This document shows positions 1 to 35,024 of a stretch of 64,000 nt of DNA, piece after piece. This stretch comes from Octopus vulgaris. Its lineage: Eukaryota. Location: contig OX597838.1 of NCBI GenBank assembly GCA_951406725.2, positions 22,630,001 through 22,694,000 on the forward strand, written 5' to 3'. Below the pieces are notes generated by a model, which worked only from the letters and a program-made list of their open reading frames with translations, searched no databases and was not told where the DNA came from. Position 1 is the first letter of the stretch; every line of letters starts with the position of its first letter. Position numbers and translations under genes: made by a program.

Positions 1-485
1 AGTCGTAGGATCGCGGTTTCGATTTCCAGACCGGGCGTTGTGAGTGTTTATTGAGCGAAAACTCCTAAAGCTCCACGAGGCTCCGGCAGGGGGTGGTGGC
101 GATCCCTGCTGTACTCTTTCGCCACAACTTTCTCTCACTCTTTCTTCTGTTGACCTAAAATCACCACCACCATCATCACCACTAACATCAGCACCACTAC
201 CACCACCACCATCACCATCACCACTACCACCACTAACATCAGCACCACCACCATCACCACCATCACCACCACCATCACCACCACCATCACCACCATCACC
301 ACCACTATCACCACCACCATCACCATCACCACCACCATCACCACCACCATCACCACCACTGACATCAGCACTAGCCAGCGGGGTGGTGTCATTTGAAGGC
401 TAAAATCAATACGAAGCGCATTGTGACCAGCGATGTGTAGCAACATCTGATAGGCCTGGTCGGTCACGGTGAACACGGTGATTTC
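1..485 (+). mobile_element. tRNA-derived SINE (family C head, 5' end outside window) interrupted by an (ACC/ATC)n expansion
   Basis: 1-150 closely matches the reverse complement of 20040-20185 (B-box-like GGTTTCGAT, then GGGCGTTGTG..GAGCGAAAA..GCTCCACGAGGCTCCGGCAGG). Non-repetitive sequence at ~370-485 is taken to be its tail. Confidence 0.7.
160..372 (+). repeat. (ACC/ATC)n trinucleotide low-complexity tract
   Basis: CACCACCATCACCACC repeats. Confidence 0.95.
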
Positions 486-554
486 GACACATACACACAC
501 ACACACACACACTGCTTATATTTAATAATCCCAGATTTAGGCTGCAGGAGTTAT

Positions 555-609
555 GCTTTCCCCGTACTGAATAAGGTATTTTGTACCGAAATATCAACTT
601 ACGGCAAGC
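555..609 (+). ncRNA. Decayed type I hammerhead-like motif (G8U)
   Basis: CCGUA-CUGAAUA-A-GGUA(UUUUG)UACC-GAAA-UA-UC-AACU-UACGG: stem II is perfect, stem I pairs with a 4-nt offset, and the core has U at position 8. Confidence 0.45.
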
Positions 610-769
610 GATAGATGATAACGAAAGATAACCGTGCCGTGTGGTTTTTCCTATTGCTTCGAGCATATTTAAACAGTAATTCTAATACGATCCATATTTT
701 ATTGAAATTCTGTATGTTGTTAGGCGTACGGTGTCTGTGTAATTTGTGTGAACGTCTATATTTACACGT

Positions 770-835
770 TCTTCTGTCTTTCTGTCTATCTGTCTTGTCT
801 CTCTCTCTCTCTCGGTCTCCATCTCTTTCTCTGTG

Positions 836-873
<38 letters not shown>

Positions 874-971
874 TCACTCCCTCTCTCTCTTCTTTCTTTG
901 TTTTTCACTGTCTTTCTCTCCTCTGTTTCTGCTATATTTAACTGATGCAGGGTACTGAGAGATGGTGTGAA

Positions 972-1012
<41 letters not shown>

Positions 1013-1158
1013 TTACATATATATGTATATATATATACACATATATATACATATATATATATATATATGTATGTATATGTATATATATACACATACATAT
1101 ACATATATGTATGTATATATATGCACATACATATACATATATGTATGTATATATATGC

Positions 1159-1204
<46 letters not shown>

Positions 1205-1860
1205 AATATTTTCTATGCTATGGTTATATATATATGCGTGTGTGTGTGTTGTGTGTGTTTATTAATCTCCTTTTATGTGCAACACACACATATATGTATG
1301 TATATATGTATGTATGTATGCATGCATGTATGTATGTATGTATGTATGTATGCATGTATGTATGTGTCTTTACATACATAAAGACACATACACACGCATA
1401 TGCATATACATAATACATACATACATACATACATACAGACATACATATATATATAGCATATTTATATATAGCGCTCTATATTTAGTAAATGCTATATATA
1501 GAATTTCCGTTTACAAGCATACATTATACAGCTATTCGTGCGTGTCGAAGTGTGTGTGTGCGTGTGCGCGCGAATATTCACATATTTTAGTGTATGTATA
1601 TGAATGCATGTGTGTGTTTGTGTTTGTGCTTGTGTCTGTGTGTCTGTGTGAGTGTGTGTGAGCGTGTGTGTGTTTGTGTCTGTGTTGGTTATGCATATGT
1701 GTGTGTGTGCGTGTATGTGTGCATGTGTGCGTGTATGTGTGCATGTGTGCGTGTGCGTGTATGTGTGTGTACGTGAGAGAGAGAGAAAGAGAGAAATAGT
1801 ATAAGCATGCACACACACAAACACACGCACGCACGCACGCACACACACACATACACAGCT
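770..1860. repeat. Compound microsatellite block (CT)n, (TA)n, (TATG)n, (TG)n, (CA)n
   Basis: Direct inspection. Confidence 0.95.
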
Positions 1861-1899
1861 GAAGGTAAGTATAAAGATATAACGACAGGTGCGACACTA

Positions 1900-3520
1900 G
1901 CGCCATCACCACCGCCACGACCGCAGCCACAACAAACAGCTCGATCGTCATCACCACACTACTACAACCCAAGCACCCTAATACAACTACCACCACCTCG
2001 ACATAGACACCTTCAGAATTACTAGTACAGCCACCACCACTAACACCAGCACCATCACCACCACCACTACCATCACCACCACTACCATCACCACCACCAC
2101 CATCATCAGCAGCACTAACATCACCACCACTACCATCACCACTCACCACACTAACATCAGCACCACTACCATCACCACCACCACCATCATCAGCAGCACT
2201 AACATCACCACCACTACCATCACCACTACCACCACCATCACCACCACTAACATCAGCACCACTACCATCACCACCACCACCATCATCAGCAGCACTAACA
2301 TCACCACCACTACCATCACCACTACCACCACCATCACCACCACTAACATCAGCAGCACTACCATCACCACCACCACCACCACCACCATCACCACCACCAT
2401 CACCACCACTGACATCAGCACCATTACCACCAATACCACTAACCATGCAGCTACATCTTCAGTCCCTTTCACAATCTCCATCGTCAGCATAATCAACAAC
2501 AGCATCACGATAGCTTCTACATGGTGACTCAACCAGCTAGAAATAGCGGCCAAATGTTCTCGTCTTCAAAAATGGAAGGACATTTTGTTGTCCTTCGAGG
2601 TATATGCACAAGTCGGAATGGTCGTAATTGGAGCGCCATTTATTACCAGCACCATTGCAATCATCATCACCACAATAACCGCAAACGCTATTGACACCAC
2701 CTTCAACACAACCACTAAGGAAACTACCACCACCACTGCTATCACTACCAACACAACCTCCACCACCATCAACACCACCGCCACCATCACCACAACTATC
2801 ACAACCACCACCAACAACAACCATAGCCATCACCGTTATCATCACCATCACCACCATCACCACCGTCGATACAACCACCAACACGACGACAACCACCAAC
2901 ACGACGACAACCACCACCATCGCCACTGACATCATCACAACCACCACCATCACCACCGCCACCATTACAACCACCACCATCACCGCCGTCATCATCACAA
3001 CCACCACCACCACCACCATCACCAAGCCACCATTACAACTACCACCATCGCCACCACCACTACCACCATCAGGATCCCCACCAACGCAAACACCTTCGCC
3101 ACCACCAACACAACTACTACCAACACTAACACAACCACCACGGATACAACCACCATCACCCCCAACACTACCACCAGAGACCACACAACTACTGCCAACA
3201 ATTACTAACATTGTACAGTAGCCAACTACCGCCAACACAACCACCGCAAACATAACACAACCACCACCAACACGACACAACCACCATCGCCGCGAACACA
3301 AACTCAACCGCCGCCAAAGCAATATAACCACCACCACCACCGCAAGCACCGTCATTGCCATCGCTACTACAACCTCCGCAACCACCATCATCACCACTAC
3401 CTCAACTACCACCGCTACCACCGCTACCACCATCATCATCGTCGCCACCTCTACAACCAATACCACTGGCACCACAACCACTACCATTTCCCAATCCCTT
3501 ACCTTCCAAGCCATTACTAT
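1900..3520 (+). repeat. (ACC/ACT/ATC)n low-complexity region with internal ~90-bp tandem duplication
   Basis: CACCACCACTACCATCACC units; the block CATCATCAGCAGCACTAACATCACC recurs at ~2101, 2185 and 2281. Confidence 0.9.
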
Positions 3521-4192
3521 ATTTTCGGTGATTCTCTAAAAAAAAAAAAACCGAGGCCGGATAAAATAAAATAGAATAAAATAAAATAAAATAAAATAAA
3601 ATAAAATAAAACGGAATGAAATATTAATAAAATAGAATAAAATATAAATAAAATATATTGCCAACAAACAAACAAACAAAACAATATCACAAATGCAAAA
3701 TACGATAATTAACAATGCAGTAGAGACGGTGAGAGGAGTGTCAAAAGTGACAATCTGATTGGCTAATTTACACTATGTATGTTAAACACTACGCTCAAAA
3801 CTTCCCATCATGCAACTGTTTACTAGCGTGTCGTGCGCAACTACACATGGCTACAAACGTTGCCATTTTGATTGAACATAACGATATTTTTATCGCTTTC
3901 CTTGTCATCGTATTTTTCTTTCTCTCTCCTCCAGTTATATTTGCTCCGTCGTTCGTTCGTTTTTTTTTTTCTATTTTCTATTTTCGATTGTCTGTTTTCT
4001 ATCTTCGGTTTTATATTTGGCAGAGTTTCGCTTATTAAGTTTGGTGGGGTTTCTTTTTCTTTTCTTTTTTTTAAAAATTAAAAGTGTCAATGCGAAACGA
4101 GGATTCTGTTTGCTGATGTAGTAAATGTTTCGTAGTAGCTTTATAATAACGTGTTACTGTTTTTGTACAAGGGACCCTGAAATATGGAGTGT

Positions 4193-4235
<43 letters not shown>

Positions 4236-4236
<1 letters not shown>

Positions 4237-4384
4237 GGAGTAAACACATAAATGTGAAACAAGGTGGAAAAAAAGAGTACTCAAATACCAGTGGTAGAGT
4301 AATATGCTTTATTTAAAGCAGCAGAAAATTCAACAAAATCTGTTACTCTGAGTTTCTCGTTGCCGTTCATCAGACAGTTTTTGT

Positions 4385-4386
<2 letters not shown>
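4236..4386 (-). mobile_element. Short HHR-bearing element between (TA)n tracts (Penelope pLTR or retrozyme-like)
   Basis: ~150 bp of unique sequence bounded by (TA)n on both sides; contains the HHR at 4333-4385 followed by AATAAA on the minus strand. Confidence 0.6.
4333..4385 (-). ncRNA. Type I minimal hammerhead ribozyme motif
   Basis: Minus strand AACAAAA-A-CUGU-CUGAUGA-ACG(GCAA)CGA-GAAA-CUC-A-GAG-UA-ACAG-A-UUUUGUU: canonical core, GUA triplet, 11-bp stem I with one mismatch, weak stem II. Confidence 0.7.
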
Positions 4387-4455
<69 letters not shown>

Positions 4456-5015
4456 CATGCATACACGCACACAGATATACATACATACATACATACATAC
4501 ATACATACATACATACATACATACATACATACATACATACATACATACGTATATGTATGTATTTACTTTCATACATACAATACATACACACATACGTAGA
4601 TATGTATATGTGTGGTTGTATGCAATGCGGTATGTATAATTCTTATTGCCTGAAATGTGCATGATTGTTGCTTATTCATTTCTTCTGTTGCTTTTTTTTA
4701 TTTTTAGACCCAGGTCAGCCTTGCTTAAGCAGACAGATTAGACGTATAAATCACATGCACAGCAGACGTAACTATCCCGTCTTAAACGCACGTACAAGAA
4801 ACTGCAAACACCATTTTTTGCCGTCGTCTAATAATCTAGAACAGTGGAGGCGGGATTTGAGAGAAATTAGGCTACTAATTCTAAAAGGTCGAACAAGGGT
4901 CACTTTGGCTTGTGCAATGCTTGTGTGAGATAGCTTATAATGCAGCGTGTGTATGGTGTGGCTATCTATATAGATGCATGTAATGTGTTATGATTGTATG
5001 TATGTGTGATGTGTG

Positions 5016-5136
5016 CAGTGCCGGATTTAGGACAAATGAGGCCCTGTACTAGTTACGTTATGAGGCCCCTTATTTCGACAGGGCCCCCGGTCAACGGGGC
5101 CCTGTACTTAAAAGCACAATGGTAAACCCGGCACTG
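5016..5136. mobile_element. hAT-type MITE (~121 bp)
   Basis: TIRs CAGTGCCGG...CCGGCACTG; 8-bp flanks GATGTGTG/GTTGTGTG (7/8 match) fit a hAT TSD. Confidence 0.8.
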
Positions 5137-5241
5137 GTTGTGTGTATGTAGTTCGTGTGTACATATAGGTGCATGTATGTGCGGTTGTGTTATATGTATC
5201 AGCATGTATGTATGTTATTATGTATGCGTGTATGACTGTGA

Positions 5242-5284
<43 letters not shown>

Positions 5285-5469
5285 AATTGTCTGCATCTAT
5301 AATGGTGTGGTTCTGTATATGATGCGGTGTGTTTACGTTCGTGTGTGTATGTGTGTATTTATGTGTGTATGTATGTGTGTGTATGTGTGTATGTATGTGT
5401 GTGTATGTGTGTATGTATGTATGTATGTGTGTGTATGCATCGGTGTCTGTCTATCTTCCATCTTTCCCC

Positions 5470-5726
5470 TTTTAACTTGTTTCAGTTATAAGACTGCGCC
5501 CATGCTGGGGCACTGACTTGAAGGGTTTTGACAGTCGAACGAATTGGCCCCAGTACGAAGTGTTTTTTTCTAGCCTGATGCCAGTTCTATCGGGTCTCTT
5601 TTGCCGAACCGCTAAGTTACCGGAACGTAAACACACCAACACCGGTTGTCAAGCGGCGGTGGGGCACAAACACAGACTCAAAGACGTGTGTGCACGCACA
5701 CACACACACACACACACATATATATA

Positions 5727-33880: not shown

Positions 33881-33882
<2 letters not shown>

Positions 33883-34220
33883 TTGGCATCCTTTCTGTCT
33901 CGGGAGACAATGGAGTTGCGCATAAAGTAGTCTAGTCCGGCTTTTATATTTCATGTCCTGATACATTTCCTGCTGTGGCTGTGTAGTCCTATCCTGGACA
34001 AACACTCCCTCTGGCAGGTACCGCAAATGTAGCGTAGACTGTTCCTGGCTGGTTGTAATGCCATAGTCTCTTGTTGACGTCTCTTCTTTTCTTTCCATTT
34101 CTCCTCTCTCTCTCTGTCACTCCTTTGTATTCCCTCTTTTACGGTACGTCGCCATTCTCCACGGTTGCCGGCAACTGCCTCCCAACCGCTAATATTGATG
34201 TTGCAGGCCTTCATGTCCCT
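33881..34220 (-). mobile_element. RTE-clade LINE 3' end with C-terminal C2H2-type zinc finger
   Basis: RDMKACNINISGWEAVAGNRGEWRRTV..YICGTCQRECLSRIGLHSHSRKC*; 3' UTR ends CCCGAGACAGAAAGGATGCCAACC. Confidence 0.85.
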
Positions 34221-34306
34221 ATATATATACATATATTCGTATATATATAATTATAAACAGAGTAAATTTTAGCCATTTCTCCGCAGACTGCAAAAAAAAA
34301 AAGGTG

Positions 34307-34357
34307 AGCAACGTTTATCGATTTTCGGACCTTATTCGGTTCTCATCAGAGGCTTCC
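34307..34357 (-). ncRNA. Partly decayed type I hammerhead motif
   Basis: CUGAUGA-GAACC(GAAUAA)GGUCC-GAAA-AUCGAU-AA: core boxes intact, but U16.1 and stem I are damaged. Confidence 0.55.
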
Positions 34358-34609
34358 ACATTATTTTGACAATCTCCAGAGAAGTAATCAGCCAAACTGT
34401 ATATATACTAAACAAATGCAGCAGTTACTCTACGAAGGAGTTCCTAATTTGCATACCATAAGTGTTTAACACTATATAAATACCAGCGGCCTGTCAATGG
34501 GGATCTTTGTCCACACAGTATTAAGGTATGATATAATAAATATGTAACATATGGTATAATTATAAACAGGGCAATTTTTAGCCATTTCTCCGCAAACTGA
34601 AAAAGCGAT

Positions 34610-34659
34610 GAACATCCTTAATCGATTTTCGAACCTTATTGGATTCTCATCAGAGATGT

Positions 34660-34661
<2 letters not shown>
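34610..34661 (-). ncRNA. Type I hammerhead ribozyme motif
   Basis: GGACAUCU-CUGAUGA-GAAUC(CAAUAA)GGUUC-GAAA-AUCGAU-UA-AGGAUGUUC: canonical core, 5-bp stem II, palindromic stem III AAUCGAUU, bulged stem I. Confidence 0.8.
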
Positions 34662-34697
<36 letters not shown>

Positions 34698-34716
34698 GTA
34701 TATATATATATATATG

Positions 34717-34772
<56 letters not shown>

Positions 34773-34777
<5 letters not shown>

Positions 34778-34973
34778 GAAGCTTTATGAAAATAAACAAA
34801 AGACGAAGGCAGGTGGAGTACAAACAAACAATTGTATTAGTATGGCGCTCAGGAATATAAATAAAACAAGTCTTTTACGTTTCGAGCCTACGCTCTTCAA
34901 CAGAAAGATACACAGAAAAGAAACACGGAGAGAAACAAGGAGAGAAAAAAAATGCGTGCAGAAGCAAGCGATT

Positions 34974-34977
<4 letters not shown>
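34773..34977 (-). mobile_element. Short HHR-bearing element between (TA)n tracts (same family as 37746-37948)
   Basis: Near-identical reverse complement of 37760-37948. Confidence 0.8.
34871..34908 (-). ncRNA. Type I minimal hammerhead motif, A6U core variant
   Basis: UCUUU-CUGUUGA-A-GAGC(GUAG)GCUC-GAAA-CG-UA-AAAGA. Confidence 0.7.

Positions 34978-35024
<47 letters not shown>

Follow-up and report, generated by a model that had tools for sequence, protein, structure and literature searches.

What kind of element leaves two hammerhead-like motifs in direct repeats some 300 nt apart, and was it ever copied through a self-cleaving RNA? The question is raised by a locus on the minus strand of a 64-kb stretch of Octopus vulgaris DNA (the window, to which all plain coordinates refer), for which the original prediction had proposed a retrozyme-like monomer. 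We give a probability of about three in four to the reading that 1.37 units of a dispersed family occupy the segment 34246-34663 (minus strand), the family being non-coding with a unit of ~304 nt and one type I hammerhead motif per unit, and that a Penelope-like reverse transcriptase likely inserted this copy into a microsatellite, as is thought for animal non-LTR retrozymes.

Anatomy of the element copy

Self-BLAST of the segment 34246-34664 aligned 34246-34359 with 34555-34663 as direct repeats of 80.7% identity over 114 columns (E 1e-25), and a third copy of the repeat was absent from the 64-kb window. In a repeat search the pair appeared as two blocks, 34246-34295/34555-34604 (90%, spacing 309) and 34296-34359/34600-34663 (80%, spacing 304). 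On the minus strand both repeats read CTGATGA...GAAA followed by ATCGAT, so that the ~110-bp direct repeats with hammerhead boxes reported at 34246 and 34555 are indeed there. The pattern CTGATGA-N8-30-GAAA occurs three times in the window against 0.63 expected, and three matches were reached in 2 of 100 shuffles. The repeats enclose a unit body of 195 nt (34360-34554, minus strand) which is conserved in dispersed copies and holds no open reading frame of at least 100 aa, in agreement with the ~200 bp of non-coding sequence reported between the repeats. No frame of this length overlaps the element at any point, and an ORF for reverse transcriptase and GIY-YIG endonuclease is absent between the repeats.

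The boundaries of the copy were set with BLAST and with a 304-position nhmmer profile, which was built from 10 other copies and applied to 74 loci. With this profile the window copy resolves into a partial unit, which covers profile positions 184-303, joined to a unit spanning positions 2-292; the two segments, 1609-1490 and 1487-1192 of locus L001, correspond to 34663-34544 and 34541-34246. The head-to-tail junction ...CCATATGTTACA|TATTTATT thus falls within the 195-nt body, at about 34541-34544. Beyond the downstream ribozyme motif the unit's 3' tail extends over 34246-34302 (minus strand), where the nhmmer match stops at profile position 292 of 304; the terminal ~12 nt seen at the 3' junctions elsewhere in the family (CCATATGTTACA) are not recognisable in this copy. 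The two "direct repeats" are the overlap of a 1.37-unit, 5'-truncated head-to-tail copy and not the LTR-like ends of a monomer. This modifies the proposal of a retrozyme-like monomer: the unit, the type I hammerhead, the low GC content and the lack of coding sequence fit it, the repeats as monomer ends do not. In all, the description in the original prediction was confirmed in every point, and its interpretation is supported at the level of genome anatomy.

An intact and a decayed hammerhead motif

The upstream motif (34607-34665, minus strand) is a formally complete type I hammerhead as judged from its sequence, a descriptor and its minimum free energy fold. Helix I is made of GGGUGGACAUCU paired with AGGAUGUUCAUC, giving 3+8 bp around one bulged A. 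The core box CUGAUGA, with C3 at 34653, leads into a G-C-closed helix II of 5 bp (GAAUC/GGUUC) with the loop CAAUAA, after which GAAA follows. The helix III region (34614-34626, minus strand) has the form AA-UCGA-UU with 2 bp and contains the self-complementary 8-nt palindrome AAUCGAUU (34626-34619). All core positions are intact, together with the pairs G10.1-C11.1 and A15.1-U16.1, and H17 is A; cleavage is predicted after UUA, between 34619 and 34618. The minimum free energy fold keeps helices I and II (-18.8 kcal/mol, z -2.08). For a stricter assessment we used a descriptor of our own which demands the full core, a helix I of at least 6 bp with one interruption allowed, a helix II of at least 4 bp, A15.1-U16.1 and any base except G at H17. 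The upstream copy was its sole match in the window, and 150 simulated 64-kb windows searched on both strands gave none.

In the downstream motif (34303-34361, minus strand) the core boxes are kept, helix II has an A.C mismatch, the helix III palindrome has lost one U, and AGG is changed to AAC at the start of the 3' strand of helix I. Being broken in helices I, II and III, it fails the strict descriptor, which bears out the earlier suspicion that the copy at 34307 is damaged. Its ancestral cut site is predicted between 34316 and 34315, and the predicted length from cleavage to cleavage is 303 nt (34618 down to 34316). Since only the upstream ribozyme is intact, the window copy must be regarded as dead, and release of a monomer is no longer possible. 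The window's own 303-nt monomer folds no better than shuffled sequences (z +0.24), while 22 natural units of the family folded as circles reached a mean z of -1.24 against dinucleotide shuffles, 20 of the 22 values being negative.

Among 35 family copies the core columns are 96.0% conserved, compared with 90.3% for the stems and 86.5% for the rest (permutation p 0.003), and each column of CUGAUGA and GAAA reaches 89-100%. Decay is nevertheless frequent in the family: the strict descriptor was passed by 15 of 37, 7 of 22 and 1 of 12 ribozyme-bearing matches in three samples, and both sites passed it in 2 of 15 two-ribozyme copies, those of L014 and L019.

Rfam at its gathering threshold found no hammerhead in the 64-kb window, and none was returned at E<=10 for the 1.1 kb of 33900-35000, for the 91-nt intact motif or for a 101-nt stretch of another copy. 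As a control, RF00163 scored the ribozyme of a second, 353-nt family of the same genome at 32.2 bits (gathering score 34, E 5.9e-7). The Rfam matches that were obtained around the element are microsatellite-driven miRNA-like and snoRNA-like chance matches: mir-3149 (39.9 bits) and mir-297 (33.1 bits) at 34666-34774 and 34946-35000 are sub-threshold low-complexity artefacts of (CA)n/(TA)n. Covariation did not add to the picture either; two-sided changes were seen in 0 or 1 of 17 pairs in either register of helix I, shuffles behaved likewise, and this is expected for copies of one master.

In the available text of Cervera & de la Pena (2014, PMC4209133) the canonical metazoan type I hammerhead has a helix III of 1-2 bp with a small palindromic loop and is expected to act as a dimer. 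The upstream motif fits this helix III design, and with 3+8 bp in helix I and 5 bp in helix II it belongs to the "canonical" type, unlike the "minimal" Penelope hammerheads described there. With the hammerheads of Penelope pseudo-LTRs the family shares the short palindromic helix III that implies dimer action; by analogy with that paper, the palindrome AAUCGAUU would permit two hammerheads to pair into a double hammerhead. Processing through double hammerheads is known for newt satellite 2 transcripts (Forster et al. 1988, cited in PMC4209133). There helix III is too short on its own and two neighbouring motifs make one extended helix III, as those of the octopus family would, but the newt motifs lie in long satellite arrays, whereas most copies of the octopus family carry a single ribozyme. 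The motif is a predicted self-cleaving RNA.

A dispersed family of about 304 nt

In the 2.8-Gb genome we found at least 1578 candidate matches to the 110-nt repeat. Besides that of the window, 39 scored matches are 88-93% identical to it and are spread over many contigs. The exact 35-nt ribozyme core occurs 55 times in the genome and a reversed control not once. These counts bear on the possibility that the locus is merely a local tandem duplication or a satellite fragment with chance CUGAUGA and GAAA boxes and no ribozyme. The missing Rfam hammerhead match and the lack of covariation would agree with such an origin. It is nevertheless very improbable in view of the dispersal of these at least 1578 candidates, the 55 exact cores against none in the control, the full descriptor that found nothing in the 150 simulated windows, and an architecture equal to that of canonical metazoan type I hammerheads as far as PMC4209133 describes them.

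From the 74 loci we kept 56 non-redundant copies after dropping duplicates and a second family; 29 had been selected by repeat likeness, 21 by an intact core and 6 as dimers. The copies are 67-540 nt long, with a maximum of 1.78 units. A common 3' end ...GTTACA (...TATACCATATGTTACA), about 75 nt past the predicted cut, is present in 45 of the 56. The 5' ends are scattered along the unit, 21 of 56 lying within about 45 nt upstream of the ribozyme. Double profile matches revealed more than one unit, with seamless head-to-tail joins (...GTTACA|TATTTATT...), in 14 of the 50 copies that were not selected as dimers, and 9 of these 50 have two whole ribozymes. Fifteen further two-ribozyme copies were noted among the loci examined. 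Genome-wide, two CTGATGAGAA boxes 283-313 nt apart are found at 14 places, and 12 of them, including the window copy, belong to the ~304-nt family; the recurrence of the same spacing in other copies, which had been named beforehand as the point on which the proposal could fall, was thus observed. The further expectation of genomic arrays with a periodicity of ~305 bp held for the two-box copies at 283-313 nt and not for arrays of three or more, as none of the eight genome matches to a three-box pattern belongs to the family.

Some of the pattern matches lead to other repeats. The loci L101 and L106 (G000:C1:52475875-52476194; C2:104743452-104743768) represent a repeat unrelated to the ~304-nt family with two CTGATGAGAA boxes ~310 nt apart (CTGATGAGAATTAAAATGGTG...). 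A 38-nt minisatellite (L063-L068, G000:C23:48048972-48049775) whose unit contains CTGATGAG matched the three-box pattern and is devoid of hammerhead features.

The 195-nt spacer of the window copy is conserved among dispersed copies on many contigs, and the GC content of 22 natural units is 0.33-0.39. Pairs of family copies are about 82-92% alike; with so low a likeness the family must be old and may be extinct. Contigs from four sequencing runs, guessed to be RNA, contain many family members, mostly 90-95% alike at a likeness cut-off of 80%. One of these contigs goes back 303 nt and three skip 309-312 nt, which is the pattern expected from genomic copies, whether they hold a single unit or more. 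The window copy is old and partly decayed, and it is an ordinary representative of its family, whose copies in the genome number on the order of a thousand.

According to Cervera & de la Pena (2020, PMC7229834), the units of animal non-LTR retrozymes are non-coding and low in GC, measure about 150-450 bp and contain one type I hammerhead each. The octopus family agrees with them in its non-coding unit of ~300 nt, its GC of 0.33-0.39, its single type I hammerhead per unit, its head-to-tail copies and its co-occurrence with Penelope-like elements. It departs from them in its 5'-truncated copies with a fixed 3' end in microsatellites and in its age (82-92% likeness). Retrozymes are described in the available text as "dimers to large multimers", while the octopus family reaches a maximum of 1.78 units in 56 copies and has no array of three ribozymes. 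A recent preprint (Li, Clavereau & Pollet 2026, 10.64898/2026.07.22.740005) reports, in the accessible portion, monomers and dimers beside multimers, with a proportion of monomers per family from 0 to 1. The best reading of the window element is that of an old, dead copy of a new family of animal non-LTR retrozymes, which are themselves a known kind of element. In the portions of the literature on hammerhead ribozymes in octopus that were available, no report of such a family was found.

Two family copies in opposite orientation, 3.4 kb apart, were seen in L062 (G000:C19:54271000-54278000). Other inverted repeats lie between them, and the locus contains no ORF of at least 150 aa.

Insertion sites

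The window copy is flanked on its 5' side by a compound (CA)n(TA)n microsatellite (34666-34774), recognised by sequence and repeat search, and on its 3' side by a TA-rich imperfect microsatellite (34212-34245), evident from the sequence. Among 56 copies, 21 have a perfect repeat of at least 12 nt within 30 nt on the upstream side, and such a microsatellite follows the 3' end in 23 of the 45 copies in which this end is intact. Control windows in the same loci contained them in 851 of 7543 cases (11.3%), so that the copies have them 3-4 times more often. The downstream repeats are mostly (CA)n and (TA)n, and element and microsatellite merge into each other because the 3' junction lies within the element's own ...ACA or ...ACATATAT (ACA/ACATAT). 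A search for target-site duplications in 28 copies found none, with a mean longest shared word of 5.36 nt compared with 5.38 nt in mismatched controls. None of the 56 copies had an adjacent inverted partner copy.

Next to the window element, another interspersed repeat occupies 33881-34220. Within it, 34150-34220 has a very high summed depth in the contigs of all four sequencing runs. A reverse-complement relative of 33881-33940 adjoins a family copy in L023.

Penelope-like elements as possible copying machinery

In a genome-wide search we found 6136 GIY-YIG candidates, many of them in an intact frame of 781 aa. A full Penelope-like element is located at about 430-5672 of locus L061 (G000:C16:20834500-20842500). 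It has ORFs of 359 and 781 aa, the latter with GIY-YIG at its C-terminus, and 456-nt pseudo-LTRs which are 99.3% alike and 4.8 kb apart. The element sits in (TA)n, and a search for a canonical hammerhead box in it found none. As many genome copies keep the 781-aa frame open, this Penelope family looks recently active. Directly after its pseudo-LTR ends (TA)n follows in 14 of 21 cases; among the remaining 7 ends, 6 are upstream repeats that continue into the element body.

Hammerheads are located in the pseudo-LTRs of Penelope-like elements of many animals (PMC4209133, available text), and these elements are abundant in the octopus genome. Both facts would suit the idea that the window locus is the remnant of one autonomous Penelope-like element whose two pseudo-LTRs were left over after loss of the coding region. 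This is highly unlikely. Dispersed copies on many contigs share the 195-nt spacer, which is not a random deletion product, there is no remnant of reverse transcriptase or endonuclease, and nhmmer and BLAST found no similarity of the ~304-nt repeat to 38 Penelope loci (the 30 best GIY-YIG loci and 8 of other sub-types, a small sample of thousands) or to the full element with its 456-nt pseudo-LTRs. The same observations speak against the alternative, raised beforehand, of a simple pseudo-LTR remnant. No autonomous partner was found among the 38 sampled loci.

We return to the reading of a non-autonomous family mobilised in trans. That retrozymes are non-autonomous riders of Penelope-like elements is the thesis of Cervera & de la Pena (PMC7229834) in the text available, and the preprint 10.64898/2026.07.22.740005, as far as accessible, likewise has them ride Penelope-like elements and reports kinship with the pseudo-LTR. 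Unlike the retrozymes of the preprint, the ~304-nt family shows no pseudo-LTR similarity in the 38 Penelope loci. Penelope insertions are described as having partial tandems, ragged 5' ends, a bias for microsatellites and target duplications that are hard to see (Craig et al. 2021, PMC8557442, available part). Partial tandems, microsatellite bias and hardly visible target duplications are also found in the octopus family, which differs from Penelope-like elements by having no coding region, no similarity to the sampled loci and no adjacent inverted partner in 56 copies. The footprint of its insertions and its co-occurrence with these elements suggest mobilisation by Penelope.

A possible replication cycle

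The following cycle would account for the copies. A copy carrying two ribozymes would be transcribed. As helix III has only 2 bp in each hammerhead, two of them would pair via the palindrome AAUCGAUU, and the resulting double hammerhead would cut after UUA. The ~303-nt RNA could then be circularised by a host ligase. A Penelope-type enzyme would nick microsatellite DNA and prime at the A/U- and CA-rich ...GUUACAUAU, about 75 nt downstream of the cut site, and reverse transcription for 0.2 to 1.8 laps would lead to the fixed 3' end and the ragged 5' ends. Neither at the cut site nor at the 3'-end site are the copies interrupted, so the template must have been a circle or an uncleaved multimer and not a cleaved linear monomer. 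For the ~304-nt family we infer self-cleavage, a circular RNA and Penelope mobilisation, and the retrozyme cycle is the most economical reading of the mechanism.

A hammerhead-plus-tail cassette at the end of an unrelated element

An otherwise unrelated, non-coding element of 1.64 kb (L115:6449-8089 in G000:C1, plus strand; also L126-L145) terminates in the same sequence as the unit, namely its final ~110 nt, which start at ACGCC-CUGAUGAG and include the tail. This element has a sharp 5' end (CAAGGGCCCGGGAAC...), 188 candidates in the genome and unrelated flanks, and ends in (TA)n. Of 20 loci, 11 carry the hammerhead-plus-tail cassette at the 3' end; in each of them it starts at profile position 188 or 189, and it is 82-91% identical to copies of the ~304-nt family, as close as those are among themselves. 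Immediately upstream of one of the 1.64-kb elements tblastn gave a weak match (E 0.002, 31 aa), which was discarded, as the 20 loci show a sharp 5' end and unrelated flanks.

The cassette gives some weight to the view that the family is a SINE-like non-autonomous retroposon in which the hammerhead and tail are a mere 3' recognition module for a reverse transcriptase of LINE or Penelope type. There would be no self-cleavage and no circle stage, and copies of more than one unit would arise by template switching. The fixed 3' end with 5' truncation, the limit of 1.78 units in 56 copies without arrays of three, and the 11 of 20 loci of the 1.64-kb element that end in the ~110-nt cassette are what such a retroposon would leave; moreover, poor cleavage is expected of a lone ribozyme whose helix III has 2 bp (PMC4209133, in the portion available). 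It would have difficulty, however, with the 14 of 50 copies of more than one unit, whose seamless head-to-tail joins are unusual for SINEs, and with the ribozyme core being the best conserved part of the unit. In addition, no tRNA-, 5S- or 7SL-like Rfam match was found at E<=10 in 33900-35000, and the co-resident 353-nt family of the same design does form arrays. We hold this explanation to be unlikely, though far less so than a Penelope remnant or a chance duplication.

SINE/LINE pairs share 3' tails. The two unrelated non-coding elements described here similarly carry the same ~110-nt 3' cassette, with the differences that this cassette is a ribozyme motif and that no coding partner bearing it was found. 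It is tempting, if speculative, to regard the cassette as a portable 3' retrotransposition module which ends both the 304-nt and the 1.64-kb element and whose CA/UA-rich end (...GUUACAUAU) primes by pairing with nicked microsatellite DNA. If this were true, the ribozyme fold would be a handle for a Penelope-type enzyme as well as a means of making circles, and the spread of animal hammerheads would be that of interchangeable 3' cassettes. The occurrence of the cassette in the unrelated 1.64-kb element also gives a hint that the copying machinery requires the hammerhead region.

A young hammerhead family in the same genome

The 353-nt family that served as the Rfam control is found, for example, at L124:1808-2368 and, on the minus strand, in L158 (G000:C1:180104800-180108800). 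Its ribozyme reads CACACG-CUGACGA-GAGGU-CAAU-ACCUC-GAAAC-UCGA-GUC, and an exact 33-nt stretch of it occurs 439 times genome-wide (control 0). The family forms arrays of up to 5 units which are 99.4-99.7% alike, as well as inverted pairs, and its 3' end ...ACGUCAC abuts (TA)n. All four sequencing runs contained contigs at least 99% alike, some of which extended across the ribozyme. The family has the textbook form of a non-LTR retrozyme and, within this genome, is the best comparison for the ~304-nt family.

Both families have a type I hammerhead with a 2-bp helix III and a UCGA loop in a non-coding unit. Like the ~304-nt family, the 353-nt family has a fixed 3' end, which lies about 200 nt past the ribozyme and abuts (TA)n, and a partial unit at the 5' side. 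It differs by being young, by its arrays of up to 5 units and inverted pairs, by its GUC cut site and by being scored by Rfam, and outside the motif no sequence homology between the two families was found.

The element in the window is of a known kind and this copy of it is dead; the value of the locus lies in the family picture. One genome holds side by side an old ~304-nt family that never exceeds 2 units, a young, array-forming family of 353 nt, and Penelope-like elements. The 3' ends of all three abut microsatellites, mostly (TA)n and in the old family (CA)n too. This makes a natural system for testing whether Penelope enzymes copy retrozymes and whether microhomology to microsatellite DNA underlies priming.

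At a distance of 1.3 kb downstream from a 574-aa Penelope ORF there is a sequence that matches the 353-nt unit at 81% (L118:4576-4813). This copy is truncated inside its hammerhead, has a (TA)n run on either side and looks like a separate insertion, not a part of the Penelope element.
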